DNA of 64,000 nucleotides from an uncultured Candidatus Saccharibacteria bacterium (GCA_964628095.1 CAZVLR010000001.1:56777-120776); one strand, 5' to 3'. Positions 14,919 to 59,389 are shown, numbered from the stretch's first letter. Program-made: numbers and translations. Notes: generated from the sequence alone by a model not told the origin.

Positions 14919-15191
14919 TTATTTATTTTTCCAAAAGTCGTCCGCTTCTTTTTCCATCAAATCCAAACGGGTATAGTAATCAGGAAATTCGTTTAAATGA
15001 GCCAAAGTAATCTTTCCGGTAATAAGCGGATCATCGTTGCTCACGTTAGTATGAGCCTCTCTTGTGCCGTGTTCTAACTCCACATCCAAACCCATGCGAA
15101 ACTGTTCGATATCAAACTTTAACCAATCGATTCCTAGCTTCTCCCCTATTTCTTTAGCTTCTTCGCCAGAAAAGTGTTTATTTGAAGTCAT
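14919..15191 (-). CDS. hypothetical protein
   Basis: 90-aa acidic ORF, tightly packed with its neighbours. Confidence 0.4.
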   Translation of the reverse strand: MTSNKHFSGEEAKEIGEKLGIDWLKFDIEQFRMGLDVELEHGTREAHTNVSNDDPLITGKITLAHLNEFPDYYTRLDLMEKEADDFWKNK

Positions 15192-15212: not shown

Positions 15213-15911
15213 TTAAATTGATCTCCTAAAAGTTCCGGCTTTGTAAAGCCATTGGCCAAACTGGCATTCAGAGCTATGCTGGGGCGGTTCGGGCTTCTTT
15301 AACACCGTTACCGCGTCGGTAAATAACTCTAACACGTCTTCGGGATTGGTGTCTATCTCATGCAGCTCTTTTTTAAAGGGCAAACGGTCCTGAAAGCCGT
15401 TTTTCTTATCCACTACGTAAAAGGCCAGATAGCCTTTTCTAGGCGTTTTAAACCCGTTCTTTTCCAATAAATAAGTATAAACATCCATTTGCAGCTGGAA
15501 GCGGTCGTAAACGTTGGGAGCTGAAGATCCCGTTGATTTGTAGTCCAGGGGGGCCAAATCTCCGTTGGCAAACTCCAGCACGTCGTCGACAGCGCCAAAA
15601 AGCGTGGCTTCCAACTGACTGTCATAATGCCGAATGCCTGAAAAATTGCTCCGCCATTGGTTTAAAAGCGATTGATTATGAAAAAGTTTAGCCGGCACTT
15701 GATGCGCGGTTAATAAAGGGTGTGGCTCCCCCGCTGCTCTAAAACTATCAAACTCCTGCTTTAAAAGCACGTCAACGGCCATATTTAAAGCATAGGGAAA
15801 AGGCTGGGGCCGCTTAATGCCCATTTTTTTGTCCAGCCAGAAGCAATGCGGGCATTCTAAGAATAAATTGAGCGAGTTGGGCGATAATTGTATTTTTTGA
15901 GGAAGAGGCAT
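15213..15911 (-). CDS. PD-(D/E)XK-type nuclease (putative)
   Basis: D...D..LDYK (GAVDDVLEFANGDLAPLDYKSTGS) resembles the PD-(D/E)XK core. N-terminal CPHC motif. Confidence 0.4.
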   Translation of the reverse strand: MPLPQKIQLSPNSLNLFLECPHCFWLDKKMGIKRPQPFPYALNMAVDVLLKQEFDSFRAAGEPHPLLTAHQVPAKLFHNQSLLNQWRSNFSGIRHYDSQLEATLFGAVDDVLEFANGDLAPLDYKSTGSSAPNVYDRFQLQMDVYTYLLEKNGFKTPRKGYLAFYVVDKKNGFQDRLPFKKELHEIDTNPEDVLELFTDAVTVLKKPEPPQHSSECQFGQWLYKAGTFRRSI

Positions 15912-15925
15912 AATTTTATCAGCTA

Positions 15926-15954
15926 TTGACTTTTTTATTAAAATATGGTATATT
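15926..15954 (+). promoter_or_regulatory. sigma70-like promoter (TTGACT, 17-nt spacer, TATATT) driving the small ORF at 16017
   Basis: TTGACT at 15926-15931, a 17-nt spacer, and TATATT at 15949-15954. Confidence 0.5.
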
Positions 15955-16016
15955 TAAAGTATAAGAATTGAACATTACCAACAATTAAATATTAACCCGA
16001 TTTGGAGGTAAAGACA

Positions 16017-16181
16017 ATGAAGGAAAAAGTAAAAAGCTTTTTTGGCTGGGTATCTGTATTAATATCTGCGTATGCGGTCATCGGCGGCTGGTCGTTTGTC
16101 GCAATAATTAACGGCGCCGATATTCTGTACATCCCCTTCTGGCACGCCCCCTGGAAACTTCTTCTTTCTCTCTTCTCTTAA
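16017..16181 (+). CDS. small hydrophobic membrane peptide (54 aa), not in the ORF track
   Basis: GGAGG Shine-Dalgarno 7 nt upstream of the ATG. Translation: MKEKVKSFFGWVSVLISAYAVIGGWSFVAIINGADILYIPFWHAPWKLLLSLFS. Preceded by the promoter and followed by the terminator hairpin. Confidence 0.5.
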   Translation: MKEKVKSFFGWVSVLISAYAVIGGWSFVAIINGADILYIPFWHAPWKLLLSLFS

Positions 16182-16473
16182 CTTTTACCCCCCCCAATAA
16201 CAAAAGGCTGTTGAAGCAATTTCAACAGCCTTTCTCTTTTAATGTTTGACTATTGTTAGAGCTTTTTATTCAGCGCCGCCCGGGTTTTGGGCCCCACCGT
16301 CCCCACCGGGCTTATTTTATTAGCCCTTTGGAATTTAATTACCGCCTTCCGGGTTAAAACGCCGTAATACCCGCCAATCTTTCCTGAGTAGAATTTCAAC
16401 TTTTTTAAGAGCTCTTGCAGTTTTTTAACCTCTGGACCCTGGTAGTCGGAATAAAGGTACTTGGTAAATTTAA
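16035..16473. repeat. copy A of a ~390-440 bp duplicated segment (3' end of giant gene + terminator + small-ORF region)
   Basis: Near-identical to 20034..20423, except for a 48-bp in-frame segment present only in copy A (about 16069-16116). Confidence 0.8.
16203..16233. terminator. bidirectional rho-independent terminator (13-bp perfect stem, 5-nt loop)
   Basis: AAAGGCTGTTGAA-gcaat-TTCAACAGCCTTT, T-rich on both sides. It sits between the small + ORF and the stop of the giant - gene. An identical copy is at 20152..20182. Confidence 0.65.
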
Positions 16474-19400
16474 ATGGCGGAGCTGGAATTACGATTTGCC
16501 CTTTATTCTCGCCCATAACAACAAATAGGGTAAGATGATTTACTTGAGCAGATATTTCATTGGTATTGATGTTTAATTGAGAATCTAAAGGGATCCATTG
16601 CTTTGTCTGCTCATTAAAATAGTAGATTTTTAGAGTGCTTTCAATAAAATTTAACACGTCTGATTCCTGATAATGAATATATATGCTTATGGGCTTGGAA
16701 AAGCTGGTAATTTGTTGCCCCCCTGAAACGATTTGGTAGTTAGCAGACAGGCTTGGAACAATATTTAAAGCTTGGGGCAAAGAAGCGCTGTTTGTGATTT
16801 GACTTACTTGGTTTTGGTCTTTTGTTTGAATTTGGAAAGAATAAACACCTGCTAAGGTGTTTGGCTCAATCTGGGCGCTGACAAAGCTTTGGGAATTAAA
16901 ATATGAAGTAACCGTACCTGTTTGGGAAGGAGAAGCACCACCCGAAGCGCCGCCAGAGCCCTGGCTTGCAACGGTAAAAGTTATAATATAATCATTTGTG
17001 TTTGCGTTTGATAAAGAATCCGAGCAACGGACATAAAAGGTATGAGTTGCGGGACCTAGGCTTGTTAATGGTTGGCTGTGTAAGGTTGAGCCTGTGGTTG
17101 AGAATGTGCTGGTCATTAAAGCATAAGTGGTGCTAGCCGTTGTTGAATATCTACAGGTGGCTGCTTCGTCTGTGGCAACAGAAAGGGTTTGTGAGGTGCC
17201 AAAAGAGGATCCGGTGGGAGAGCCGGCTGAAAGGACAGGCGGAATAGAAACATAAAGTTCAAAAGTGGTAGTACTAGACGGAGTATTTGTGCGTGAGAAT
17301 GATAAATCCCCATTAGCATTGGCTGAATATTTTTGACTAAAAGAACTATCGATAAAAAGATCGTAATTAGAGCTGGAAGTTAAATCAGTAAAATTAAGAG
17401 TCAACTGGCTAAAACTTTGGGCTCTAACCTTGCTGTAGCTACTTCCTAATTCATCGGCGTAAACCGTAACCGGCGCCACGTCTGTGCTTGTAGCTTCAAT
17501 TTCTACCGTATTAATTTCGTCAAAATCCATGGCATAATTGGTGGAAACTTGGCTTCTGTTATTATGCAGCTTTTTACCGTAAACCCAAGCATTGTACCAA
17601 TTAGTAGCCATAATCCCACTGCCAGTTGCATTGGTATGCACCCCATCAAGCAATAAACCAGATTCGTCACTAGTATCTAAATCATAATCCCAACCGTCTT
17701 GTATAAAAGTATTCCAGTGGTCGGCAATAACCACATCTTCTTCCAAGGCCATAGTTCTTAATAAATCATTTAAATCGTCTGTAGAATCATAATCTGCCTG
17801 GGTTCTGCTGTTTACGCCCACAACAATGGGAGAAACTAAACCAAGAATTGGAGTAACGCCCATTGACTTTGCGTACTCTACCATTATTCTTAAATTATCC
17901 CGGGCCACTATTTCATTGGCGTCAGTGCCCAAATCATCAGTATCGTTAGTCCCTTCAAGGATAAAAACAGCTTCTGGAGCCGTTTCTAAAATAGAATTAA
18001 CCAAACGCAAGGCTGCGCTGGCAGAGGTTTCTCCACCCTCGCCCCCATCAACCATATCCGTGCTAGTTGCATAATAAGTTTCCAATTTTCCATCCAAGAG
18101 CACCCTGTAAGCTTCGTAGTTATTGCTGGCAACTCCGGCGGTCAAGGAATCGCCAAAAGCTAGAAATTTTTTGCTAACCGGTTTTATAACGGTTATGGTA
18201 GTTGTTCCACTTACGTTGCTGGAGCCATCAGTGGCTGCAATCTCAAAAACATTGGAACCGCTGGCTAAATTTCCGCTATAGCTCCAGGAGGTTGCCCCAG
18301 CCGTATAAGTTACTCCGGAAACAGAATTATTTACTTTTATGGTTTCGGTGCTGGCACTGGTTGTTCCAGACAGCGAGATAGTTGATTCAGTAGAGGAAAA
18401 ATTCTTTCCGACCCCATTACCGCCGTTGGTGGTAATTATCGGCCGGCTAATTGTATTTTCATATTCATACGCTCCGATATCATAAGCGTTGCCCGCACCC
18501 GCATCGGTCCGCAAGTTGCCGGCATAATCATCCGCCACATCCGCAATGGTCGCACCTGCGTCTATCATGGGGCTATCTTTTTGCAAAGTAAAATCGTATG
18601 CAGCTGCATTGGTAAATAGCGGATCAAGGCTCATATTGGTAGTGTCTATGGCTACTCCGTCTGCCTGATGGATATAACTGACATCTGTTGAATTTTGGTA
18701 TAAATTATTATTTTGAAAAATAACATTGCTGGTCCCCGCTAGATATACCCCATCAGCAACCGCCTCATTAAAAACATTATTTTTTATATCAATGTCATCG
18801 GCACTCGTATGTACCTTAAGCCCGTAGTAATTCTGGTAAAAAGTATTATTATAAACGTTTATTCCATTACCCTGTAAAACAAACAGTCCGCTCCTCATTG
18901 ACAAATAGGAGCTTTGAGTCCCATTTTTATAAAAAATATTGTTTAATATATTAAAAGTGCTTTCTGTGCTGTTGATATAAACGCCCGTTCTTTCATTATT
19001 GTTTAAAATGCTTTTTTCAACTTCATTAGTGCCTGTTGCAAAATAAATTCCGTTTTCAACACTATGATGCGAATGACTATTTATTATACTATTACTGCCC
19101 CCGGATACAAAAACACCTGTTATCCCATTGTCGTATATTTCGCAATTTTCAACGACAACGTTACTTCCCTGCAGATAAACGCTGTAAGCCACGGCGTTTC
19201 TTAATTTTAAATCTTTTAATTTTACATAACTTTTTGTGCTTGTAATGTTAACAACATAATTGGCACGATTGACCTCTATGGCATGGTCATCGGGATTAGT
19301 CCCGTCTGCCGTATGCACATATAAAAGATCGTTGGCAGCATCCAAATAATAGGTTGACGCACTCGCTTCAACTAAAGCAATAGAGGAAGTGGAAGTATAT

Positions 19401-19879
19401 CTTGTATAATTATCGTTTTGCCAAGCAAATGAAATGCTGGCAGCTGTTTCCGTCGCTTGATAAGTATTAGTTTTTCCATCGGTTAAAACAAACCCGGTTT
19501 TTAAAGTTCCGGCTGAAAGAATAACTTCTTCTCCGGTATAAGCCTGGTAAGTTATGTATCCTCCCGCTTCGCTTCCAGTATTCGTGAGAGATATTAAACT
19601 TCCTGTACCAGTGCCACTAACATATCTTCCCGCCCGGATATTTACCGTATCTCCTGCGGCTAAATTTGTGTTGGCCTTAGAAATACTGCACCAAGGCGTA
19701 GTAATAACTTGGGCCTGAGTCGTAGTGTAAGAATCGTTACAGGCGCCCCCCACGCTGTCAACGTCAACATAATAGGTTGTTGCTTGGGCAAAAGAAAAAC
19801 TTCCTAAAAATAGGATGGTTAAAAATAAAAAACAACTGAGAATAAAATACTTTCTTATTTTTCTTTTGGTATAAAACAT
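16256..19879 (-). CDS. giant secreted beta-helix protein with internal SGNH-hydrolase domain and C-terminal peptidoglycan-binding (PG_binding_1) domain
   Basis: 1207 aa. N-terminal signal peptide. Many parallel beta-helix repeats (NN.F..N......). SGNH blocks (FLAFGDSLTAG, ILEGTNDTDD, DGVHTNATG). C-terminal YQGPEVKKLQELLKKLKFYSGKIGGYYGVLTRKAVIKFQRANKISPVGTVGPKTRAAL. Confidence 0.8.
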   Translation of the reverse strand: MFYTKRKIRKYFILSCFLFLTILFLGSFSFAQATTYYVDVDSVGGACNDSYTTTQAQVITTPWCSISKANTNLAAGDTVNIRAGRYVSGTGTGSLISLTNTGSEAGGYITYQAYTGEEVILSAGTLKTGFVLTDGKTNTYQATETAASISFAWQNDNYTRYTSTSSIALVEASASTYYLDAANDLLYVHTADGTNPDDHAIEVNRANYVVNITSTKSYVKLKDLKLRNAVAYSVYLQGSNVVVENCEIYDNGITGVFVSGGSNSIINSHSHHSVENGIYFATGTNEVEKSILNNNERTGVYINSTESTFNILNNIFYKNGTQSSYLSMRSGLFVLQGNGINVYNNTFYQNYYGLKVHTSADDIDIKNNVFNEAVADGVYLAGTSNVIFQNNNLYQNSTDVSYIHQADGVAIDTTNMSLDPLFTNAAAYDFTLQKDSPMIDAGATIADVADDYAGNLRTDAGAGNAYDIGAYEYENTISRPIITTNGGNGVGKNFSSTESTISLSGTTSASTETIKVNNSVSGVTYTAGATSWSYSGNLASGSNVFEIAATDGSSNVSGTTTITVIKPVSKKFLAFGDSLTAGVASNNYEAYRVLLDGKLETYYATSTDMVDGGEGGETSASAALRLVNSILETAPEAVFILEGTNDTDDLGTDANEIVARDNLRIMVEYAKSMGVTPILGLVSPIVVGVNSRTQADYDSTDDLNDLLRTMALEEDVVIADHWNTFIQDGWDYDLDTSDESGLLLDGVHTNATGSGIMATNWYNAWVYGKKLHNNRSQVSTNYAMDFDEINTVEIEATSTDVAPVTVYADELGSSYSKVRAQSFSQLTLNFTDLTSSSNYDLFIDSSFSQKYSANANGDLSFSRTNTPSSTTTFELYVSIPPVLSAGSPTGSSFGTSQTLSVATDEAATCRYSTTASTTYALMTSTFSTTGSTLHSQPLTSLGPATHTFYVRCSDSLSNANTNDYIITFTVASQGSGGASGGASPSQTGTVTSYFNSQSFVSAQIEPNTLAGVYSFQIQTKDQNQVSQITNSASLPQALNIVPSLSANYQIVSGGQQITSFSKPISIYIHYQESDVLNFIESTLKIYYFNEQTKQWIPLDSQLNINTNEISAQVNHLTLFVVMGENKGQIVIPAPPFKFTKYLYSDYQGPEVKKLQELLKKLKFYSGKIGGYYGVLTRKAVIKFQRANKISPVGTVGPKTRAALNKKL

Positions 19880-20033
19880 TAATTTTTTACTGACTGGTAC
19901 GGTTTAACAAAAAATAACCGGTCAAAATTCTTTTTAATAATTGTATCATAAAAAATACGTTTCTGCAAAAATTTAATCGGAGAATAATTATTTATTAATT
20001 ATGTTAATATTTAAAAATTTTAATCGTTCTAAT

Positions 20034-20423
20034 CTTTTTTGGCTGGGTATCTGTATTAATATCTGCATATATTCTGTACATCCCCTTCTGGCACGCCCCC
20101 TGGAAACTTCTTCTTTCTCTCTTCTCTTAACTTTTACCCCCCCCAATAACAAAAGGCTGTTGAAGCAATTTCAACAGCCTTTCTCTTTTAATGTTTGACT
20201 ATTGTTAGAGCTTTTTATTCAGCGCCGCCCGGGTTTTGGGCCCCACCGTCCCCACCGGGCTTATTTTATTAGCCCTTTGGAATTTAATTACCGCCTTCCG
20301 GGTTAAAACGCCGTAATACCCGCCAATCTTTCCTGAGTAGAATTTCAACTTTTTTAAGAGCTCTTGCAGTTTTTTAACCTCTGGACCCTGGTAGTCGGAA
20401 TAAAGGTACTTGGTAAATTTAAA
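20034..20423. repeat. copy B of the duplicated segment; small-ORF remnant lacks start codon, RBS and promoter
   Basis: Identical run from the TTTTTTGGCTGGGTATCTG through the terminator hairpin and into the last ~75 codons of the 20205..23339 gene. Confidence 0.8.
20152..20182. terminator. second copy of the 13-bp-stem bidirectional terminator
   Basis: Same hairpin sequence as 16203..16233. Confidence 0.6.
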
Positions 20424-23339
20424 GGCGGACTCGGAAACTATGGCTGTTTTTTTCTCACCCATTAAAGCAAACAGGCTAAGATGATTTACACTGGCAGCAA
20501 CCTTGTTGTTAACCATATCTAAAAAGTTATTCAACAGGGCTTCCCATTTTTTATCTTGCTCATTGTACCAAAAAATCTTAAGCGTCTCTTCTTTGTAGTC
20601 TTGAACTTCTTGATCGGTATATTGAAAAGTAATCGTTAAGGGTTTTGAAAAAGAAGAAACTGCTATACCGTTGGAAGTTATCGAATAATCCGCCACCAGC
20701 TGCGAAACAATCTGAGTATTTGCACTGAGCATTGACGCATTGTTAGTTAACTGCTGAACCTGAGCAGAATCTTTAGGAACAATAGAAACTATAGCAGAAT
20801 TAATATTCTGAGCCGGAATCTCTATCTTGGTGAAACTTTGATTGGTAAAATTATATAAAGTGCTGGTTGGGCCATTAGAAGATACCGTGGTCGAACCATT
20901 GCCTGTTTCTGGCAAAACAATAGGCGGACTAAAGGTGGTTGCTGAGCCACCGCCACTGCAACCGCTGTTATTTTCAAAACTGGTAATGGTGGTAAAATCG
21001 CTCTCGAAAGCATCCCTATTTTTAGCTTTTACCCGAAAATTATAACTGGCTCCATCCCCGCAGCTAAGGCCCGAAGAAATCCAAGAAGTATCCGTTATCC
21101 AGCCAGAATTAGTGCCTTCGGTTATGTTTTCAACGTAATAATAGGTGCCGGCCGGGTTGGAATTGGCCGACCAAGAAACAGTGGCTCCGTGAGAGGCCGA
21201 GTTAGGGGTTACGGTGACGCTAGAGGGCGTATACACCCTCTCGGTAACCTCAAAGGTTTTGATGGAATATCCCCCGTTATAAGTAAAGGTAATTTGGCCG
21301 GAACCGTTGGAGAGATAATTTCCCAAACTAACACTGTCAACCAAAACCGTATAATAAGTATCTGCCCCAAGATCTCCAATCGTATGAACGGAAACAATAC
21401 TTGAGGTAGCACTGGTTTCAATCCATTTTTTATAATAAGTTGAAGAAGTGCTCCAATTTTTAACAGTAATATCCATCCAACTGCTATAATCGGCTAAGGG
21501 CCAGCCCGAGCTTGGAGCAATATTAAAATCAGCAACCGTGCTGGTAGCGCCAGTACCGGTGGCGCTGGTATAACGGAATTTACCATTAGAATATATTCTA
21601 AGAGGCGAAGAAACGTCAAAGTCGTTGGTGCCAGCAGTATACGGAGGCTGATATTCATAAGCGCCAATATCTGGGGTGCCGTAAATAGGGTTGCCGAGAT
21701 AATCAGCGGTTAAGCCCACATTGGTCCCTGCATCAATAGCCGGCGAAGTTGAAAGCAAGCTTAAAGAATTGGTCGAAGTGCTGGTATAATCGGGATCATC
21801 AATAATTGAATTGGTATCGTAGCCCAAAGCCTGCCAAGTCGCTACCAAACCGGCCTGGTGCCCGTCGGCATTTGCAAAAATATAGCCAGTATCTGTTTCT
21901 GAACCGTTCCAAAAAAGATTATAGTTGGAAACGTGATCAGTGCCAAGGTAAAAATCTACTGGGTGGGCTGAGGCATCCGTATATTCGATGGCATTATTTT
22001 TAATCCATGTTTCGTTGGTTGTCCAGCCGGCAACACTACTAGCCCCGTTAATAATTGAACTGCTGGTTCGATTCTGATAAAAAGAATTATTGTAAATAAT
22101 AGCGCTGTCTTGGCCCTTAGCCGCAATTACTACGCCCTGCTGATTAATAAAAATATTATTATAAATTCCGTATTGATGATTTAAATCAAGATTCAGCCCG
22201 GTTGAATCTTGGTCCCTAAGGCCCATGCCAATACCAAGACCGACAACCTTATTCCGATAAAAAGAAGTTGGGCAATCAAACTGGCCAGCATGATTGCTGT
22301 CATTTTCTGCGCCAAGATAACCGGTAAAAGTATTGTCGTAAACAAGAGCCGGAGAAGCCATATTCCAGGCGCCCAGAATAAGCGCTCCGCCGGCGGCAGA
22401 ATATCCGGTAACTGTAAAAGAATTATCGTAAACCGAAGCTGAAGTAACGGTTGGATAAGACGTACCATTAATTGTTATAATACCAGGCCCGTTATTATCT
22501 TTTGTAAAAATATTATCGTAAACTAAAATATTATCCCAATTAAGAGAATTGCATAAACCGCCGGCCCCGGAATTGGTCCAAATGTTATCGTGGATAATAA
22601 GATCAGAACCGGCCAAAACGGTTGTTCGGTAATTGTTATCTTCATATATTAATGGAGCCACAATATTATTAGAAGTATCGTTTATGTTTTTTATTTCCAA
22701 AGAGTTCAAGGCCGCCCTTATTTGAAAAATGCCATTATTGGCAGCTGTTTCAGCCCAATCATTTATCGTTAAATTATCCAATATAATGCTATAATTGGAA
22801 GAAGTCTGTGGAGAATAAAAAAATCTAGTTGTTGTAGCAAAGTCAGTTGAATTGTTTATGGTGCAGTCTTTAAAATTAATCGTGCCTCCGGATCCTGCTT
22901 CAAGGCTGGTAGTAAATACGTGAGTGATTGTCAGTCCGGCTACATCGGCATCAAATAAAATATCTTGAAAAGTAACGGTGTTTGAGCCGATCGAAGATAA
23001 ATCAACCGTAATAGCAATACTTAAACCATTTGAATTAATTTCTGCCCCGGCCCCATAAGCTATCCAAGTGCCGCCGTTTATAGTTACCAAAGAAGCCGGA
23101 CTAAAAGTGCCAGTAATATAAATAGTGTCACCATTGGTTGTTACTGCTCCGTCGGCATCCTCTAATTGATCAAAGGGGGCGGTAGCGCCAGAACACACTG
23201 AAGTGCTACCATCTCCTGGAGTGGCGCAAGTTGAATCAATATAAAATGTTGCCGCCTTGATTCTTTCAAAAGTAAAAAGACAGTTAAAAAATAATGCTAA
23301 TAAAAAAATAATTCTTAAATATTTAAATTTTAACCTCAT
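20205..23339 (-). CDS. giant secreted beta-helix protein with C-terminal peptidoglycan-binding domain (paralog of 16256..19879)
   Basis: 1044 aa. Signal peptide. Beta-helix repeats (NNIFINQ, NNSFYQN, YDN.FT). C-terminal ~75 aa are identical to the paralog. Confidence 0.8.
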   Translation of the reverse strand: MRLKFKYLRIIFLLALFFNCLFTFERIKAATFYIDSTCATPGDGSTSVCSGATAPFDQLEDADGAVTTNGDTIYITGTFSPASLVTINGGTWIAYGAGAEINSNGLSIAITVDLSSIGSNTVTFQDILFDADVAGLTITHVFTTSLEAGSGGTINFKDCTINNSTDFATTTRFFYSPQTSSNYSIILDNLTINDWAETAANNGIFQIRAALNSLEIKNINDTSNNIVAPLIYEDNNYRTTVLAGSDLIIHDNIWTNSGAGGLCNSLNWDNILVYDNIFTKDNNGPGIITINGTSYPTVTSASVYDNSFTVTGYSAAGGALILGAWNMASPALVYDNTFTGYLGAENDSNHAGQFDCPTSFYRNKVVGLGIGMGLRDQDSTGLNLDLNHQYGIYNNIFINQQGVVIAAKGQDSAIIYNNSFYQNRTSSSIINGASSVAGWTTNETWIKNNAIEYTDASAHPVDFYLGTDHVSNYNLFWNGSETDTGYIFANADGHQAGLVATWQALGYDTNSIIDDPDYTSTSTNSLSLLSTSPAIDAGTNVGLTADYLGNPIYGTPDIGAYEYQPPYTAGTNDFDVSSPLRIYSNGKFRYTSATGTGATSTVADFNIAPSSGWPLADYSSWMDITVKNWSTSSTYYKKWIETSATSSIVSVHTIGDLGADTYYTVLVDSVSLGNYLSNGSGQITFTYNGGYSIKTFEVTERVYTPSSVTVTPNSASHGATVSWSANSNPAGTYYYVENITEGTNSGWITDTSWISSGLSCGDGASYNFRVKAKNRDAFESDFTTITSFENNSGCSGGGSATTFSPPIVLPETGNGSTTVSSNGPTSTLYNFTNQSFTKIEIPAQNINSAIVSIVPKDSAQVQQLTNNASMLSANTQIVSQLVADYSITSNGIAVSSFSKPLTITFQYTDQEVQDYKEETLKIFWYNEQDKKWEALLNNFLDMVNNKVAASVNHLSLFALMGEKKTAIVSESAFKFTKYLYSDYQGPEVKKLQELLKKLKFYSGKIGGYYGVLTRKAVIKFQRANKISPVGTVGPKTRAALNKKL

Positions 23340-23425: not shown

Positions 23426-23468
23426 CTTAACTTCTAAAAAGGGCCCCGACATATTAATAATTGTCGGG
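23426..23468. terminator. rho-independent terminator downstream of the DUF5667-like gene
   Basis: GGGCCCCGACA / TGTCGGGGCCC stem with a 10-nt loop. T-runs on both sides. Confidence 0.55.
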
Positions 23469-23500
23469 GCCCTTTTCTTTAATCTTAAACAAATTAAGAG

Positions 23501-32567: not shown

Positions 32568-33164
32568 GTGTATTCTCCCAAGATCCAAAAACTCATAAAC
32601 TTGTTTTCTAAATTCCCCACTGTCGGTCCGAGAACTGCGGCCCGCTTTGTTTTTTATCTGGCCCAAAAGCCAAAAGAGGAAATCGACAATCTAATCGAAG
32701 CGATTTTGGACGTTAAAAACAATATTAAAACCTGCCCGAGCTGCTTTAAAACGTTTGATTCAAACACCGAGGTTTGCGAAATTTGCCAAAACCCGGGGCG
32801 CAATAAAAAGCTTTTATGCGTAGTGGAAAAAGAGGTTGATTTGGAAACCATTGAAAAAACCAAAAAATACCAGGGCCTGTATTTTATTTTCGGCCCCCTG
32901 GCCTCCCCTTTGAAAAAAAACAGCGAAGATAATTTAAGAATAAACGTGCTGGAAGAAAAAATGAAAAATAATCCTGAGGTCCAGGAAATTATTATTGCTA
33001 TTAACCCAACGGCCGAAGGCGAAGCCACCACCCTGCTCCTAGAACGAAAACTTAAGCCCCATACAAAAAAGATTACGCGCTTGGGCCGAGGCCTGCCCAT
33101 TGGCGGCGAATTGGAATATGCCGACCAAGAAACCCTGGCCTCGGCTTTGGAAAATAGGAAATAA
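32568..33164 (+). CDS. recR: recombination protein RecR
   Basis: C4 zinc finger (CPSCFKTFDSNTEVCEIC), followed by a Toprim region. Confidence 0.85.
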   Translation: MYSPKIQKLINLFSKFPTVGPRTAARFVFYLAQKPKEEIDNLIEAILDVKNNIKTCPSCFKTFDSNTEVCEICQNPGRNKKLLCVVEKEVDLETIEKTKKYQGLYFIFGPLASPLKKNSEDNLRINVLEEKMKNNPEVQEIIIAINPTAEGEATTLLLERKLKPHTKKITRLGRGLPIGGELEYADQETLASALENRK

Positions 33165-37964: not shown

Positions 37965-38597
37965 TTAAGCGCCGAAATTCCTCAGCGCCTCTGAAATTTC
38001 AACCAAATTCAAATCGAAAATTACGCCCACGCAGGCTGAAGCCAAAACCGCGCAAACCTGCTCGCCTCCGGATTTGTCTTGCAGCCAAAAGGGCACAATA
38101 TTCCCCTTGTAATTGAGTTTAAAATTGGTTCCGCCGTTTGAATGAATGTCGCTGGCCTGAAAGTTAGCGCCCTCTTCAAATCCGAAAGTCAGCGTTTTTA
38201 AATTGGTAAGCTCGGCCACCTCGCCAAAAGCTTTGTCGTCTGAATTAAAAACTAAATATCCGCCCAGGGGCGCGGTTTTTACCAGCTTTCTAATCTTTTC
38301 TATTGTTTTCTTTTCTTCAGTTTTAGCGCCCGAGCTGGCGATTACTAAAATAAGCAAAGAGGAGTTCTTCATTAAAAAATCCAGCTCGGGCAAATTTGAA
38401 AAATCGTTGTCGAAAACAAAAACTTCGCTGTTAATTTTCAAATACGGCTTTAAAACCTGGTTAATCGCTTTTTTGGCAACCAAACGCGAACTGCCGCAAA
38501 CAATAATGGTTTTGGGCTTCTTTAAGGTTATTTTTAATTTAGAAAGTATTCCCAGCATGTTATTGTGTTTGATCTGGCGCAATCTGCCATAAATCAA
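37965..38597 (-). CDS. Mur ligase central-domain-like protein with degenerate P-loop (possible murE/murF remnant)
   Basis: KTIIVCGSSRLVAKKAINQVLKPYL aligns to the Mur ligase V.GITGTNGKTTT...L P-loop region, but GKT is replaced. The C-terminal VCAVLASACVGVIFDL..ISEALRNF resembles the HN..NALAA.A.A..LG block. Only 210 aa. It sits where murE/murF normally follow ftsI. Confidence 0.45.
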   Translation of the reverse strand: MIYGRLRQIKHNNMLGILSKLKITLKKPKTIIVCGSSRLVAKKAINQVLKPYLKINSEVFVFDNDFSNLPELDFLMKNSSLLILVIASSGAKTEEKKTIEKIRKLVKTAPLGGYLVFNSDDKAFGEVAELTNLKTLTFGFEEGANFQASDIHSNGGTNFKLNYKGNIVPFWLQDKSGGEQVCAVLASACVGVIFDLNLVEISEALRNFGA

Positions 38598-40275
38598 TGA
38601 TATATTTGGCCATGTCGCGGAATAAAGGCACGGCTGATTCTTCGGCCGAACTGGTTTTGGGATTGTATACTTTAACCAGAATTACAAATTGCGGGTTTAG
38701 GGCCGGGCCAAAGCCGATAAAAGACTGAATGGTTTTATCCGAATAGCCCCTTTGATTAATGCCCAAAGAAGAATAAGGCACCTGGGCCGTGCCGGTTTTG
38801 CCGGCTAAATAATAGCCGGGAATCTTTGTTTTCCTGCCATAGCCGTTTTCCACCACGCTAATTAGCATGGCGGTTAACTGCGAGGCGGTTTTTTGGGAAA
38901 TAAGATCTGATTTTTGCACCTTGGGCACAATAGTCTGAACGCTGTCCTTTTTGATTATTTTTTCCACCAAATAGGGCCTCATTAATTTCCCACCATTAGC
39001 AATGGCTGAAAAAGCCCGAACCAGCTGAAGCGAGGTGATTTCAATGCCCTGGCCAAAAGAAGCGGTGGCAAAATTAACGTCGCTCCCCTTTTTTAAGCCC
39101 TTGTTTTGAGAAGACACCTCGCCCTGCAAATCAACGCCTGTTTTTTCAAAAAACCCGAATTTTTCAATATAGTCCAAAAAATCCTGATGGCTGATCTGGC
39201 GCTGGGCAAAAACCGCCCCGGTGTTGATCGAATTTTCAAGAACGTTAGTCATGGTTAAAAGCCCGGGCCATTTTTTCTTGTTAAAATTTGAAATAACGTA
39301 CCCGCCAATGCTTTCACTGCCCGGATCAAAATAAGTGGTTTGCGGAGTTATCTTGCCCGAATCCAGGGCCGCCGCCATGGTAATGGGTTTGAAAACCGAG
39401 CCCGGCTCGAATATTTTTTGAATGCTGGAGTTTTGAAAAATATCCAAATTCTTAACGCTAGAATAATTATTGGGGTCAAACCCGGGCCAGGTGGCTAAAG
39501 CCAAAATCTTGCCCGAATTGGGATCCATTACAATAATTTCAGCGCTTTCAAATTCAATATCCTGCTGCGCTTTTTTTAAAACGTTTTCAGCTTGAAACTG
39601 AATATGGTAGTCCAAAGTTAAAACCAGGTCACCGCCTTTGTCGGGCAGACTGGAAGAGCCTCCAGAGTTTTCGCTATCCAAATCAATGTTGCCGCTGATT
39701 AAAAAACCTTTGGGGCCCTTCTCTCTTTCTAAATAAGATTCCTGCCCTCTCAATGCGTCTTCGTAAAAAGCTTCCAATCCGTACTGCCCGGTGTCGTCGC
39801 CCCCCAAAAAGCCTGAAACCTGGGAAGCCAAAGATTCCAAAGGATAGTATCTTAAGGTTTCTGTTTTTAAATAAACGCCGGGCAATTTTAACTCTTCAAT
39901 TTTTAAAGCTTCCTCATCGCTTAATTTATTTTTTAATGTTTCGTAATTGCTTTCTTGCGTTATCTTTCCCAAAATCTCGGCCTTATCCAAATTTAAAACA
40001 AGGCTCAGCTGCTTAGCGGTTTCTTCCTTTTCTTTAATTTCATTGGGAGCCGCATAAACAAAATCGGCCTGCTGGTTAATAACCAGAGGCGACATATTGC
40101 TAAAATAGATTTCCCCCCGTTCGCCCTGGGCCAAATCCATGAATTTTTGCTGGCCAAAGGCCATAGCCCGCCACTCCTGCGTTTTTATTATCTGAAAATA
40201 AACGAGGCGACCCGCAACGATCGCCAATAAAACGCTTAAAAGAAAAAAAACTATATTAATTCTCCATTCCCTCAT
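38560..40275 (-). CDS. ftsI: penicillin-binding protein 2 / FtsI-type peptidoglycan D,D-transpeptidase
   Basis: N-terminal TM. SxxK (GSVFKP), SxN (ENSINTG) and KTG (AGKTGTAQ) are all present. Confidence 0.85.
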   Translation of the reverse strand: MREWRINIVFFLLSVLLAIVAGRLVYFQIIKTQEWRAMAFGQQKFMDLAQGERGEIYFSNMSPLVINQQADFVYAAPNEIKEKEETAKQLSLVLNLDKAEILGKITQESNYETLKNKLSDEEALKIEELKLPGVYLKTETLRYYPLESLASQVSGFLGGDDTGQYGLEAFYEDALRGQESYLEREKGPKGFLISGNIDLDSENSGGSSSLPDKGGDLVLTLDYHIQFQAENVLKKAQQDIEFESAEIIVMDPNSGKILALATWPGFDPNNYSSVKNLDIFQNSSIQKIFEPGSVFKPITMAAALDSGKITPQTTYFDPGSESIGGYVISNFNKKKWPGLLTMTNVLENSINTGAVFAQRQISHQDFLDYIEKFGFFEKTGVDLQGEVSSQNKGLKKGSDVNFATASFGQGIEITSLQLVRAFSAIANGGKLMRPYLVEKIIKKDSVQTIVPKVQKSDLISQKTASQLTAMLISVVENGYGRKTKIPGYYLAGKTGTAQVPYSSLGINQRGYSDKTIQSFIGFGPALNPQFVILVKVYNPKTSSAEESAVPLFRDMAKYIIDLWQIAPDQTQ

Positions 40276-49005: not shown

Positions 49006-49012
49006 GCCAAAA

Positions 49013-49039
49013 GAAAAACCGGCGATTATCGCCGGTTTT
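49013..49039. terminator. bidirectional rho-independent terminator between the 687-aa gene and rplL
   Basis: AAAAACCGGCGAT-t-ATCGCCGGTTTTT perfect palindrome with flanking A-runs and T-runs. Confidence 0.65.
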
Positions 49040-49056
49040 TCTTTTTAGAGTAATAA

Positions 49057-55188: not shown

Positions 55189-56451
55189 TTACTTTTCTAG
55201 CTCAATAATTACAATTTCTTCAGCCTCATCAAATTTTGAAGGCAACCGGCGAATTTTAACGGCTAAAGCTTTTCCATCCGGACTAAAGCCAAAAGTGGCT
55301 ACGGTTATGCCGCTCAGAGAATACTCTTGATAGCCTGGCACATTAAAATGACTTAACCTCTGCTGATTTGAGCCGTCGGCATCCATAATCCAAAAATCGG
55401 AACGCAAATTATCGCCTACAATATCGCCGTTCTTATCCCGATTTTGAGCCGTATCCTGGCTGGACATAAAAACGATTTTTTGGCCATCTGGTGAAAATTT
55501 AGCAAATTCATCCCATTCCAATGGCGTATTGGTTAATCTAGTAACTTTTTGCGTCTTTAAATCATAGAAAAATTCATCCAAGGCCGTTAACTTTGAATAG
55601 TAAGTTTTCTTATTTTTATCTTCCGGAAAGGCTGAATAGATTATTTTTGAATTGTCAGGTGAAAACCCATTAGTTTCATAAAACTGCATATTGCCCGGTT
55701 TAACCTCAATTATATTTGTAAGCTTCGGCTCTCCGTTTTCCACCATAAAATCAGCAACTTTCATTACCCAACTGCCCCAGGATTCCGGATCGTAGCTGAC
55801 TTTTTCCGCCCAGAGAATTTTTTTGCCGTCATAGGAAAATTTTGGATGAAGCACTCCCATGCGGGCAGCCACCTGGGTTATTTGCCAAAATTGTGATCCA
55901 TCGGCATTGGTTATCCAAAGATTGTTATTCAGCCCGCCGCCCGGAGTCCTGGCAAAGCGTTCTAGAATTTTTAATTTAGAAAATAATTCAGTATCCTCTG
56001 ATTGAAAAGCGATAAATTTACCGGAAGGATGCCAACTAGGATTGCCATTCATCCCTTGCGGTATATTGGATTTATTGCAAGTTAGGCATTTTTCATTCAT
56101 TCCATCTAGATTAATCGTCCAAATATCATAATTGCCGTCTTTCTCCTTACGATCAAAAGCAATGATATTATTCGGTCCCCATTCTACCCGTCCGCCTTTA
56201 TTAGTTAAGGTTCTGACATTTTTAACCTTATAAGTTGTTGAGTCGGGAAAATTTTTTCCGTTATTGGCGTTGCAATCAATCGAACAGCTTCCATTTTTTT
56301 GTTCCCATTTTTGGCAAATACTATCACCACATTTGGATTTTTGATAATTTTTTAGCAATATAAAGCCAATTACTAATAAAATTATAACTATCAAGACAAT
56401 AATTAAAAGTTTTTTGTTTGCCATATATTTAAAATTATTTTTCAAACTCAA
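55189..56451 (-). CDS. TM-anchored PD40/TolB-like beta-propeller protein with N-proximal 4-Cys motif (paralog family member 1)
   Basis: TM (LLIIVLIVIILLVIGFILL), followed by CGDSICQKWEQKNGSCSIDCNANNG. PD40-type repeats (GNPSWHPSGKFIAFQ, WITNADGSQFWQIT, FSPDG). Confidence 0.7.
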   Translation of the reverse strand: MSLKNNFKYMANKKLLIIVLIVIILLVIGFILLKNYQKSKCGDSICQKWEQKNGSCSIDCNANNGKNFPDSTTYKVKNVRTLTNKGGRVEWGPNNIIAFDRKEKDGNYDIWTINLDGMNEKCLTCNKSNIPQGMNGNPSWHPSGKFIAFQSEDTELFSKLKILERFARTPGGGLNNNLWITNADGSQFWQITQVAARMGVLHPKFSYDGKKILWAEKVSYDPESWGSWVMKVADFMVENGEPKLTNIIEVKPGNMQFYETNGFSPDNSKIIYSAFPEDKNKKTYYSKLTALDEFFYDLKTQKVTRLTNTPLEWDEFAKFSPDGQKIVFMSSQDTAQNRDKNGDIVGDNLRSDFWIMDADGSNQQRLSHFNVPGYQEYSLSGITVATFGFSPDGKALAVKIRRLPSKFDEAEEIVIIELEK

Positions 56452-58117
56452 TGATTACGATTTTCTCGTTTTGCCAAAATTCTCCAGGATATGTCCTGAG
56501 CTTGATAACAATCTGTGTGCCGTCAGGATTCCAGCTATGTTCTGCAACTACTGCGCCATCAGCTGTTAATTCCGGATAAACCGTTGAATCGGTGAGCGAA
56601 GAATTAAAATGAGTCAATCTTTTCTTGTTGGATCCGTCTGGATCCATTATCCATAAGTCCTGTTTTTGTTCTCCTGCCACAACATAGCCATCAGCATTTC
56701 TATTTTGCAGAATGTCCAAAGTTGAAGTCCAAATTATTTTGTTTCCATCTGGAGTAAATAGAGCGAATTCATCCCATTCATATTGTGTTCCGGTTAAGGA
56801 AGTCAGCTGCTGAGTATCCAAATCATATATAAATTCATCAAAGCTTTGGGCGGGCAAGTCTTCTTGAGAAGCCGAAAAAGTGATTTTATCATCATTCGGA
56901 GAAAAGCCATGTGTTTCATAAAGCCCCATGTCGCCGGGCTGTATTCCTTGAATATTGCTAATGGTTGGCACACCATCGACAACTGAAAAATCAGCTATTT
57001 TTATTTCCCACTGCCCCCAAAAACCCGAAAAGCAATTGGCGGGAAAGGTCATCCGCTCAGCCCAAATAAGCTTGGTTCCGTCGTGGGAAAATTCGGGATG
57101 CAGCACTCCTTTCCTGTCGGTCATAAAAGTTAGTTGCCAAAATTGGCTGCCGTCTGGATTAGTAATCCAAAGATCATTGTTAATGCCGCCACCGGGACTT
57201 TCAGCAAAGTTTTCACATACAAGATTCGATAAATCAGGATTTTCAGACTGGAAAACTATATAATTGCCAGAGGGATGCCAGCTGGGATTGCCATTCATAT
57301 GAGGATCGCCAGCCTCGGCGCAGGTTAGGCATTTTTTGCCGGAGCCGTCAGGATTCATTGTCCAGACATCATAGAATCCGTCGATTCCCATTCGGTCAAA
57401 GGCAATGATATTATTTTTGCCCCAATTTACTCGTCCGCCGCTTTCGGTTATAGTTGTAATACTTTTTATTTCATAACTGCCCGGTGGCGGTGGCGGATTT
57501 GGTATAAAAGCCAACTGCGAACCACCGCATAAAGGAGTAATCCTTATACCCCCTCTATTATCTTGGTCCAAAATATCACATTCCAAGCCCAAGTCTTCTG
57601 AACAATAACTAATGCCGTAATGGCAGGGACTCTCCTCTGTGCCCAGATTAATAGAAGTATATCCGTAAATATAGCGGTACTTTGAATTATTAACCGGGTC
57701 TTTGGGCGGACCGTCGGGGAACCAATCTTTTAGGATTTCTTTAAAGCTATTACCCCAGTCAGATCCCCCATTAATGCTGCCGTCTCCTACAGAGGCAGCT
57801 GCCAAACAATAAAGATTGTCTGCGTCTTCCAAACAGCTTTGGGTCGGATCGCAAAGAACATTCCAAAATGCATCTGGCCCGCCTTCCCCAAGGCAAGCTG
57901 CCGCTTCAGAACCGTTGGGGTTGGGATAATACCCGTAAAAAGTATAATGGGCGTTAAGCGCCAGCCTTAATTGGTTGGTTTCAGCCGCTCTCTTGGCGTC
58001 TCGGCCCTCCTTCTTGGCGCTATCAAGCACTATGAAAACAATCGTGGTAAGAAGCCCGATAATGCTAATTACTACTAGCATCTCAATTAAAGTAAACCCT
58101 TTTGATCTTTCATGCAT
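56435..58117 (-). CDS. type IV pilin-like N-terminus fused to PD40 beta-propeller domain (paralog family member 2)
   Basis: Class III signal MHERSKGFTLIEMLVVISIIGLLTTIVFIVL (G-FTLIEML). C-terminal domain is homologous to the neighbours (GNPSWHPSGNYIVFQSE, WITNPDGSQFWQLT). Confidence 0.7.
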   Translation of the reverse strand: MHERSKGFTLIEMLVVISIIGLLTTIVFIVLDSAKKEGRDAKRAAETNQLRLALNAHYTFYGYYPNPNGSEAAACLGEGGPDAFWNVLCDPTQSCLEDADNLYCLAAASVGDGSINGGSDWGNSFKEILKDWFPDGPPKDPVNNSKYRYIYGYTSINLGTEESPCHYGISYCSEDLGLECDILDQDNRGGIRITPLCGGSQLAFIPNPPPPPGSYEIKSITTITESGGRVNWGKNNIIAFDRMGIDGFYDVWTMNPDGSGKKCLTCAEAGDPHMNGNPSWHPSGNYIVFQSENPDLSNLVCENFAESPGGGINNDLWITNPDGSQFWQLTFMTDRKGVLHPEFSHDGTKLIWAERMTFPANCFSGFWGQWEIKIADFSVVDGVPTISNIQGIQPGDMGLYETHGFSPNDDKITFSASQEDLPAQSFDEFIYDLDTQQLTSLTGTQYEWDEFALFTPDGNKIIWTSTLDILQNRNADGYVVAGEQKQDLWIMDPDGSNKKRLTHFNSSLTDSTVYPELTADGAVVAEHSWNPDGTQIVIKLRTYPGEFWQNEKIVIIEFEK

Positions 58118-58156
58118 GGGTTAATATATTTTGTGCTTGCTTTTTATATCTCTATT

Positions 58157-59389
58157 TTAATCCTGGTGTTTTTCAAATTCAATAACAATAATTTTTTCGT
58201 TGTCATCAAAATTACCCGGCATTACCCGCGTTTTAACCGCCATCCTACTTCCGTCGGGACTCCAGCTGTAATCAGCCGGATTGGTGCCAGCCGGGTTGTA
58301 TTCCGAATAACCTGGCTCGTTAAAGTGTGTGAGCCGGGCTAAATTTTTTCCATCAGCATCCATAATCCAGAAATCAGATTTAAGCTTATTGCCTTCTATA
58401 ACTCCTTTGGCATTGCGAATTTGATTGATGCCCATGCTCGACATAAGAATTATTTTTTTCTGATTTGGCGTCAACATCGCAAATTCGTCCCATTCCTTGG
58501 GCGAATTGGTAAAATTGGTAAGCTTCTGGGTTTTTAAATTGTAACTGAACTCGTCAAAACTTTGCGACGCTTCATATCTTTTGGAAGCGGAAAAAAATAT
58601 TTCGGAATTGTCTTTGGAAAAACCGTTAACTTCATACAATCCCATATTTCCCGGCTGGATTTCTTGGATATTGGAAATTTTAGGTTCGCCATTGATAATA
58701 TTAAAATCGGCAATTTTAATAGACCATTGTCCCCAAAAATCATTAGTAAAGCTCTTGGAAAGCGCAATTCTTTCAGACCATAATAATTTTGTGCCGTCCG
58801 GTGAAAAATGTGGATGCAAAACACCCAACCGATTGGTCACATGTGTTAACTGCCAGAATTGGCTGCCGTCGCGATTAGTAACCCATAAATTATTATTAAT
58901 CCCTCCGCCGGGATGCGTCGCCCATTTTTCTAAAAAGGGCACGGATAAATTTGGATCTTCCGCTTGGAAAACAATATAATTGCCAGAAGAATGAATAGTT
59001 GGATTACCATTCATTTTCTGAGGGATCCCCGCTTTTTCACAAGTTAGGCATTTTTTATTGGAACCGTCGGGATTCATCGTCCAGATGTCATAAAACTTAT
59101 CATCTCCCTTGCTATCATAGGCAATATAATCGTTGGTCGGAGACCAATCAACCCTACCGCCTTTTTCGGCAATAGTTGTTATGGATTTTATTTTATAATC
59201 GCTTGCTGGGCCATTAGGAATATTTTTACAATCATTGGCGCAGGTTTCATTTTTTTGTTCCCATTTCTGGCAGATATTATCTCCGCATTTTGACTGGCGC
59301 CAGAAAAATAATAAAGCTAATGCAATAAATATTATAACAACAACTATTAAGATAATTTTTGTTATTTTTTTCATATTTTTTATTTCCAC
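58157..59389 (-). CDS. TM-anchored PD40 beta-propeller protein with CGDNICQKWE...C..DC motif (paralog family member 3)
   Basis: TM, then CGDNICQKWEQKNETCANDCKNIPNG, then PD40 repeats. Confidence 0.7.
   Translation of the reverse strand: MEIKNMKKITKIILIVVVIIFIALALLFFWRQSKCGDNICQKWEQKNETCANDCKNIPNGPASDYKIKSITTIAEKGGRVDWSPTNDYIAYDSKGDDKFYDIWTMNPDGSNKKCLTCEKAGIPQKMNGNPTIHSSGNYIVFQAEDPNLSVPFLEKWATHPGGGINNNLWVTNRDGSQFWQLTHVTNRLGVLHPHFSPDGTKLLWSERIALSKSFTNDFWGQWSIKIADFNIINGEPKISNIQEIQPGNMGLYEVNGFSKDNSEIFFSASKRYEASQSFDEFSYNLKTQKLTNFTNSPKEWDEFAMLTPNQKKIILMSSMGINQIRNAKGVIEGNKLKSDFWIMDADGKNLARLTHFNEPGYSEYNPAGTNPADYSWSPDGSRMAVKTRVMPGNFDDNEKIIVIEFEKHQD

Follow-up and report, generated by a model that had tools for sequence, protein, structure and literature searches.

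Two diverged tandem surface-protein genes of an uncultured groundwater Patescibacteria bacterium share a peptidoglycan-anchor and terminator module, probably through gene conversion

In Helicobacter pylori, the 3' segments of the gene pairs babA/babB and homA/homB are more similar within a strain than between strains (Pride & Blaser 2002, as summarised in PMC3960876). According to that summary, the paired loci are distant from one another and their products are anchored by an outer-membrane beta-barrel; conversion serves to regulate adhesin expression, and RecA dependence and the formation of chimeras have been shown experimentally (PMC3960876). To judge by this account, these pairs, in which anchoring ends are homogenised and exposed parts diverge, are the closest parallel to a locus that we describe in a 64,000-nucleotide (nt) stretch of DNA deposited under an uncultured Candidatus Saccharibacteria bacterium (GCA_964628095.1, CAZVLR010000001.1:56777-120776), hereafter the window, in which all positions are counted from the first letter. 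Here, two large genes for putative surface proteins, gene A and gene B, end in the same sequence. In contrast to the H. pylori pairs, A and B are adjacent and in direct orientation, their anchor is a PG_binding_1 domain, the shared tract runs on through the terminator into a fragment of a neighbouring gene, and the case is known from sequence alone.

Neighbouring wall-protein paralogs with conserved 3' wall-association regions and variable exposed parts also occur in Streptococcus pyogenes (mrp/emm/enn) and Lactobacillus acidophilus (slpA/slpB), and recombination between emm-like or slp paralogs leads to chimeras, deletions or switching. The emm-like anchors are LPXTG or peptidoglycan-spanning regions and those of slp are S-layer wall-binding domains; slpA and slpB are inverted and switch by inversion, whereas the direct repeats of A and B would yield deletion or duplication. 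In tufA/tufB and the rRNA operons, RecA-type non-reciprocal exchange keeps duplicates identical and homogenises the whole gene, while at the present locus only the 3' module of saturated paralogs is affected. The mechanism is an ordinary one, partial gene conversion between tandem surface-protein paralogs, with unusually clear boundaries. Homogenisation of anchoring ends is well known in pathogens, and this locus offers a clean example in an uncultured groundwater organism of the Candidate Phyla Radiation (CPR/Patescibacteria), in which, to our knowledge, intragenomic recombination is hardly documented.

The shared 3' module and the genes that carry it

The window contains an exact 355-nt direct repeat, 100% identical between copies whose starts lie 3,949 nt apart (Table 1). 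Self-blastn and tblastn returned two copies only in the 64 kb, and an exact match of 355 nt in a sequence of this size cannot be due to chance. A first-pass annotation, made from the sequence before the present analysis, had placed the two tracts at 16035-16473 and 20034-20423, which is correct within 1-2 nt, and had described them as ~75 codons with ~215 bp of flank. The tails are identical as it proposed, the exact extent being the last 72 codons and the stop in both genes, and its flank length holds for A (219 nt) but not for B (171 nt); the contiguous non-coding part measures 136 nt. Outside the core lies a 35-nt distal block that is identical at 34 positions, with G at 16070 against A at 20067, and in copy A a further 48 nt, flanked by 2-nt AT microhomology, sits between core and distal block. 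These 48 nt were deleted in copy B between AT and AT. The annotation was right that they occur in A alone, but they are not the sole difference, given the G/A mismatch, and they are in frame for a small plus-strand open reading frame (ORF), lying outside both large genes. At 20033/20034, where the homology of copy B ends on its left, the tract meets the unique, AT-rich intergenic region between B and A.

Identity was profiled over a codon-aware alignment in windows of 24 codons. All three tail windows were 100% identical, both overall and at third positions, whereas the adjacent 24 codons upstream were 59% identical in nucleotides, 43% at third positions and 52% in amino acids, and nucleotide identity farther into the genes was about 50% or lower. 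The proposed abrupt end of identity is thus borne out, the fall from 100% to 59% taking place within one 24-codon step and not gradually. At the outer end of the tract (16037/20034), the adjoining sequences are unalignable. A saturated body joined to an identical tract indicates old paralogs with a young 3' module. Because the identity extends over a non-coding 3' untranslated region (UTR) and a dead gene fragment, purifying selection is ruled out, and DNA must therefore have been transferred between the loci. Together, the identity cliff and the identical non-coding flank support the recent gene conversion or unequal recombination that had been suggested for this locus.

In gene orientation, the tail consists of 72 codons (FKFTKYLYSDYQGPEVKK…TRAALNKKL), the stop, a hairpin in the 3' UTR, a run of eight G and the 3' part of the small ORF. 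The identical tract begins at residue F1136 of A, 11 codons before PG_binding_1, such that the 72 codons encode an 11-residue linker and a complete PG_binding_1 (PF01471) domain, which scored 54.0 bits in A and 54.1 bits in B against a cut-off of 23 and covered model positions 1-57 of 57. Among peptidoglycan (PG)-binding domains in the Protein Data Bank, the tail matched those of an L,D-transpeptidase (4lpq, E = 7.7e-7), CtpB (4c2c, 2e-6), SleB (6tci/4fet, 5e-4) and phiKZ gp144 (3bkh); unlike in these proteins, the domain is here C-terminal on beta-helix/SGNH proteins of more than 1000 amino acids (aa) and not part of a small hydrolase. An AlphaFold2 model of the C-terminal 197 aa, built on a two-sequence alignment, had a mean predicted local distance difference test score of 60, with values below 55 over the tail, which is too low for use. 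The tail is predicted to hold both proteins on the cell wall. Besides A and B, no protein exceeded 52% identity to it among the matches listed from 1.84 billion representative proteins.

The 13-bp-stem terminator of the first-pass annotation corresponds to a hairpin that we found in both copies with a stem of 13-14 bp and folding free energies of -20.5 and -18.3 kcal/mol (z-scores -3.4 and -5.3). U-rich tails flank it on either strand and identify it as a bidirectional terminator, and in copy A it is predicted to serve both gene A and the convergent small ORF. An Rfam scan of positions 15800-20600 gave a chance-level sok match only (22.7 bits against 59). The neighbouring homopolymer varies in length from 6 to 8 across assemblies and copies, with 8 in both copies of the window, 7 in A and 8 in B of contig L001, 7 in both copies of L002, and a shortened run together with an additional G>C change in L041 (L001 and L002 are introduced below).

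The small ORF is complete solely downstream of A, on which it converges. It has an ATG start, a GGAGG ribosome-binding site (RBS) at 16005-16009 and a promoter-like TTGACT-17-TATATT at 15926-15954, and annotations of the Joint Genome Institute (JGI) and the European Nucleotide Archive (ENA) list it as a 54-aa gene. It has no Pfam match, and the loci fetched from other species contain no homolog of it. Downstream of B, homology to it starts only at about codon 7, and the 48-nt deletion takes out the core of the helix. A remnant that is both start-less and deleted indicates that the flank of copy B was derived from the context of A; the original context would then be that of copy A.

Table 1. 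Coordinates of the repeat, the two genes and associated features in the 64,000-nt window, with the tail haplotypes
Feature	Position	Strand	Description
Gene A	16256..19879	-	1207 aa
Gene B	20205..23339	-	1044 aa
Repeat core, copy A	16120..16474		355 nt, exact match to 20069-20423
Repeat core, copy B	20069..20423		355 nt, twin of 16120-16474
Distal repeat block, copy A	16037..16071		35 nt, inside small ORF
Distal repeat block, copy B	20034..20068		35 nt
48-nt block, copy A only	16072..16119	+	core of the small protein's transmembrane helix (AVIGGWSFVAIINGAD)
PG_binding_1 region of A	16271..16441	-	residues 1147-1203
PG_binding_1 region of B	20220..20390	-	residues 984-1040
Bidirectional terminator hairpin, copy A	16203..16233	both	13-14-bp stem, U-rich tails
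Terminator hairpin, copy B	20152..20182		same hairpin
Homopolymer, copy A	16188..16195		C8 on +, G8 in gene orientation; between hairpin and small-ORF stop
Homopolymer, copy B twin	20137..20144		C8 on +
Small ORF	16017..16181	+	54 aa (MKEKVKSFFGWVSVLISAYAVIGGWSFVAIINGADILYIPFWHAPWKLLLSLFS), predicted single-pass membrane peptide
Small-ORF remnant	20034..20130	+	downstream of B; without start codon, RBS or promoter
Polymorphic doublet	16358..16359, twin 20307-20308	-	codon GTT (Val) or GCC (Ala)
Tail haplotype H1			GTT; window A and B
Tail haplotype H2			GTT + A at 16351; L036 A
Tail haplotype H3			GCC; L001 A and B, L002 A and B, L033-L035 B
Tail haplotype H4			GCC + G at 16341; L037 A, L040 A

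Both large reading frames are as first annotated, on the minus strand. Besides a predicted N-terminal signal peptide and the C-terminal PG_binding_1, gene A encodes a right-handed beta-helix (Pel9A-like), DUF5123, an SGNH/GDSL hydrolase domain and a pre-tail domain, with Pfam scores of 70.7 bits for Beta_helix (PF13229; cut-off 25.9) and 67.5 bits for Lipase_GDSL_2; PF22842 (Pel9A-like) is also listed for it in the precomputed annotation. Gene B encodes a predicted signal peptide, a probable beta-helix that scores below threshold, a region resembling FN3, the pre-tail domain and the C-terminal PG_binding_1. Both products appear to start with a Sec-type signal peptide (in A, …SFSFAQA followed by TTYY). 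The beta-helix label that both genes had been given is well founded for A but not for B, whose Beta_helix match (14.8 bits, E = 0.022) stays under the cut-off, though B is probably a beta-helix protein as well, since it aligns to the helix region of A at 28% identity (BLASTP, E = 7e-5). A and B can be aligned over their last ~400 aa at 43% amino-acid identity, the identical tail included, and third codon positions that are 43% identical beside the tract, with near-saturated synonymous sites, agree with their description as divergent paralogs. The regions upstream of A and B have no significant similarity to each other and are unalignable. Two very different secreted proteins thus carry one peptidoglycan anchor and one terminator, and in these giant lineage-specific proteins the anchor and terminator are the constant part, with the rest free to diverge.

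The pre-tail domain, of ~90 aa (SFSKP…TLKI.YNEQ.K.W…VNHL.LF.MGE; 16475-16760 and 20424-20710), has no Pfam match. Genes resembling those for surface proteins in metagenome-assembled genomes (MAGs) of Levybacteria, Woesearchaeota, Nanoarchaeota and Methanosarcinales encode versions 27-45% identical to it, so that CPR bacteria and several archaeal lineages (DPANN, Methanosarcinales) may share an undescribed domain. Gene A is interrupted in contigs from other assemblies of the same species. CAG is changed to TAG at codon 1091 (window 16609) in two independent assemblies (L037:3606 and L040:2584), which leaves the anchor tail cut off in an 86-aa ORF of its own, and GAA to TAA at codon 331 (window 18889) in L041:1360. 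These inactivating alleles suggest that gene A is dispensable or under fluctuating selection. L037 and L040 also differ from the window by 15 single-nucleotide polymorphisms (SNPs) packed into 146 nt of the beta-helix region of gene A (18379-18524), against a background divergence of about 0.1-0.3%, and this cluster looks like an imported recombinant patch.

Copy structure and tail variants across assemblies

Evidence on copy number was drawn from contigs of the same species assembled with several assemblers from groundwater metagenomes (PRJNA292723, ANAN16-1, JGI 3300009285 and JGI 3300009031). Loci were matched through protein cluster members, and differences between the window and each contig were listed from BLAST. 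Four junctions recurred in more than five independent assemblies: B body to repeat, A body to repeat, repeat to B-A intergenic region, and repeat to small ORF. A 59-kb contig (L001; JGI 3300009285) matched the window at 99.96% identity along 23.6 kb and kept the order B, A, small ORF, an architecture on which both long contigs (170 kb and 59 kb) concur. MEGAHIT contigs at k127/k141 pass from the B body into the repeat (L033, L034, L035), and another MEGAHIT contig (L036) leaves the repeat, crosses the intergenic region and A, and enters the repeat again. L037 (SPAdes) and L040 (JGI 3300009031) continue from A through the repeat to the small ORF and beyond, and a Logan k31 contig (L028) stops ~30 nt into the repeat. 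The recurrent junctions, the different exits of the two copies and the breaks expected of a genuine repeat make the two-copy structure secure.

Two contigs depart from this order. L002 (ENA, ANAN16-1 scaffold_6195; L002:1-7147) follows window positions 21756-16120 and then 20423-18557, that is, the 3' part of B, A, the repeat, a B-type exit, the intergenic region and the 5' part of A again, with identical SNPs in its two A segments. It could represent unequal crossing-over that duplicated A in tandem, the junction of an excised circle or an assembler loop through the repeat. In L040 (Ga0103682_10009718), the first 247 nt (L040:1-247) are foreign to the window and joined to gene A at 18945, as either a strain rearrangement or a chimeric contig. 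A practical warning follows for short-read assemblies, which the repeat breaks or misleads, contigs ending k-1 nt inside it and one scaffold looping.

The window and L001 differ by 8 substitutions in 23.6 kb, and half of these (4 of 8) are accounted for by the GTT/GCC doublet in both copies. The doublet reads GTT in both copies of the window and GCC in both copies of L001 and L002, so that at face value it is more similar within strains than between them, which is a signature of concerted evolution; phased contigs, however, give GTT in A and GCC in B. In every population sampled, identity between the copies lies at 99.2-100%, which suffices to show a recent conversion. The Ala form of B was present on four contigs in the contig index, and an exact-protein look-up of the window's A in that index returned no contig. 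Combined with the two repeat exits, the doublet provides a marker for measuring conversion, deletion and amplification in Rifle-type read sets.

Competing histories of the repeat

We consider it likely that an ancient tandem duplication was followed by gene conversion, which homogenised the 3' anchor module of A and B. Under this reading, A and B would be tandem, co-oriented, anciently diverged paralogs for secreted enzymes or adhesin-like proteins, and the original duplication unit would have comprised the gene upstream region, the gene, the terminator and the 3' part of the small ORF, with the distal breakpoint inside the small gene. The remnant behind B, fused to the upstream region of A, and the intact small ORF behind A are what marks the arrangement as the product of a tandem duplication. 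Apart from its 3' end, the duplicated unit would have diverged to saturation at silent sites, while a 3' module of ~390-440 bp, made up of the linker and PG-binding domain, the stop, the bidirectional terminator and the 3' part of the convergent small ORF, would have been overwritten repeatedly or very recently by non-reciprocal homologous recombination (gene conversion, concerted evolution). Conversion would be confined to the remaining island of homology, from the old duplication junction to the linker before the anchor domain, since beyond the linker divergence, and probably selection on the differing passenger domains, would block exchange. Recombination is presumably RecA/RecFOR-dependent, and we infer a polarity from A to B and continuing conversion. 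The window carries a gene for RecR (32568-33164).

Several observations weigh against this history or temper it. In the k127 assembly of SRR2177362, the A tail has GTT and a synonymous change at 16351 and the B tail has GCC; its contigs end exactly k-1 nt past the last inter-copy difference, as does the k = 141 contig L034, and the phased k = 127/141 contigs (L033, L034, L036) indicate that in at least some populations 2-3 of the 355 nt differ between the copies. With 115 nt between it and the repeat entry, the doublet is unphased for k of 100 or less. The homogeneous GTT/GTT and GCC/GCC states could be bubble-popping artefacts of lower-k assemblers, and the perfect identity in the window may be slightly overstated by repeat collapse. 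L001 keeps a difference of G7 against G8 between its copies, ~70 nt from the repeat exit, so it kept the copies apart at least near that exit; retention of this difference with a homogeneous doublet fits the bubble-popping scenario. GTT in B was seen in the window alone, and the exact B protein of the window was absent from the contig index. The available data argue only weakly for ongoing conversion over one fairly recent conversion. Identity is just 59% beside the gene-internal boundary, which means that a classical RecA-mediated exchange could not be resolved outside the identical tract. Finally, searches by word index, genome contigs and metagenome contigs returned no orthologous locus in a sister species by which the events could be dated. 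Among genome contigs, the C-terminal alignment of A and B retrieved only pre-tail domains at 27-45% identity, in non-orthologous loci of Levybacteria, Woesearchaeota and Methanosarcinales MAGs. Metagenome contigs gave two distant PG-binding matches only, and in the word-index protein search the B query found B alone and the A query found distant PG-binding or beta-helix matches and missed B.

The main rival, which we regard as unlikely, is a single illegitimate or microhomology-mediated replacement in which B received ~440 bp, the tail and flank of A, at its 3' end, with no conversion afterwards; B would previously have had a diverged tail of its own or none. Such an event would explain why both tract ends are abrupt, without usable homology beyond them, and the 48-nt deletion with its 2-nt microhomology shows that illegitimate events do happen at this locus; the few inter-copy differences in phased assemblies could then be drift after one event. 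It would, however, reduce to coincidence the small-ORF fragment that abuts the upstream region of A behind B, which is exactly what a tandem duplication predicts. Moreover, A and B are collinear up to the boundary, with 52% amino-acid identity in the preceding 24 codons, implying that B was already built in this way, and the tails of the window and of L001 are each homogeneous yet differ from each other. An assembly artefact is very unlikely, be it in a strong form, with a false two-copy structure, or a weak one, with perfect identity arising from a collapsed bubble. The 355-nt repeat does exceed the read and k-mer lengths, contigs from MEGAHIT and Logan break in it exactly k-1 nt past the last inter-copy difference, the A-repeat-intergenic-A walk of L002 is possibly a loop through a collapsed node, and to these are added the unphased doublet, the GTT form of B confined to the window and the L001 copies that differ in the homopolymer but not in the doublet. 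Against the strong form stand the four types of unique-to-repeat junction, recovered by different assemblers, the copies' exits, which differ by the 48-nt indel and one mismatch, and the need of both genes for the segment to supply their stop codon; the weak form would merely lower identity from 100% to about 99.2% and leave the conclusion intact.

Purifying selection on the anchor domain alone, without DNA transfer, has next to no probability. The coding part is indeed a functional domain that would have to fit the same peptidoglycan, but identity at 72 of 72 third codon positions, in the 136-nt non-coding flank and in the start-less remnant, set beside 43% identity at the third positions next to the tract, refutes it. 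Hardly more credible is a mobile or programmed-variation element, whether an insertion resembling a miniature inverted-repeat transposable element (MITE), a template/variable pair of a diversity-generating retroelement (DGR) or antigenic variation from silent cassettes. One might be suspected where surface-protein genes of a CPR genome carry repeats at their 3' ends, and DGRs are common in CPR genomes; the Rfam scan, on the other hand, gave no family match. Each form was considered and rejected. A MITE or insertion sequence (IS) should bring terminal inverted repeats or a target-site duplication, and the tract has neither, the terminator being its sole inverted repeat; it is also limited to two copies in the window, with a tail unique to A and B among the matches listed. 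For a DGR, the copies lack adenine-specific mismatches, being identical or differing by the T/C doublet, and the genes called between ~10 kb upstream of B and ~10 kb downstream of A include no reverse transcriptase (RVT) or recombinase. Silent cassettes do not fit two full-length genes with their own starts.

Duplication followed by conversion also leaves direct repeats that are a substrate for deletion or amplification of gene A. A more far-reaching version, in which the repeats act as a recombination module for gain, loss or amplification of gene A and for re-assortment of anchors, the L002 arrangement is a real tandem amplification or the junction of an excised circle, and the GTT/GTT, GCC/GCC and GTT/GCC combinations are true products of bidirectional conversion among strains more than 99.6% identical, strikes us as rather improbable. 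If true, it would, together with the recurrent nonsense alleles of A, mean rapid turnover of surface-protein genes, driven by recombination, in a natural population of an ultra-small CPR bacterium.

Genomic surroundings

Genes for an extracytoplasmic function (ECF) sigma factor and a DUF5667 protein lie immediately upstream, and the window also encodes a transpeptidase of the penicillin-binding protein 2 (PBP2) type (38560-40275) and a Mur ligase. The best named relatives of its CysS are 64-69% identical and belong to Candidatus Nealsonbacteria, Pacebacteria and Parcubacteria, which points to a CPR/Patescibacteria bacterium without a close sequenced sister species. The next genes downstream of the small ORF encode a PD-(D/E)XK nuclease (15213-15911) and a DUF5661 protein (14919-15191), neither with an evident link to the repeat.

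Two near-perfect intergenic palindromes of 37-41 nt, at 23437-23476 (between the DUF5667 gene and gene B) and 49009-49045, are probably bidirectional terminators. At 55189-63703, five tandem minus-strand genes carry PD40 (beta-propeller) repeats, at least one of them with a type IV pilin-like N-terminal methylation motif, and neighbouring genes share segments of 74-81% nucleotide identity (e.g. 58845-59092 and 57129-57373); this array is an older or partly homogenised paralog family. In a Levyibacteriota MAG (L007:1456-3883), two adjacent co-oriented paralogs of 351 and 381 aa share a 242-nt segment that is 90% identical, which may be another case of partial homogenisation of tandem genes in a CPR genome.

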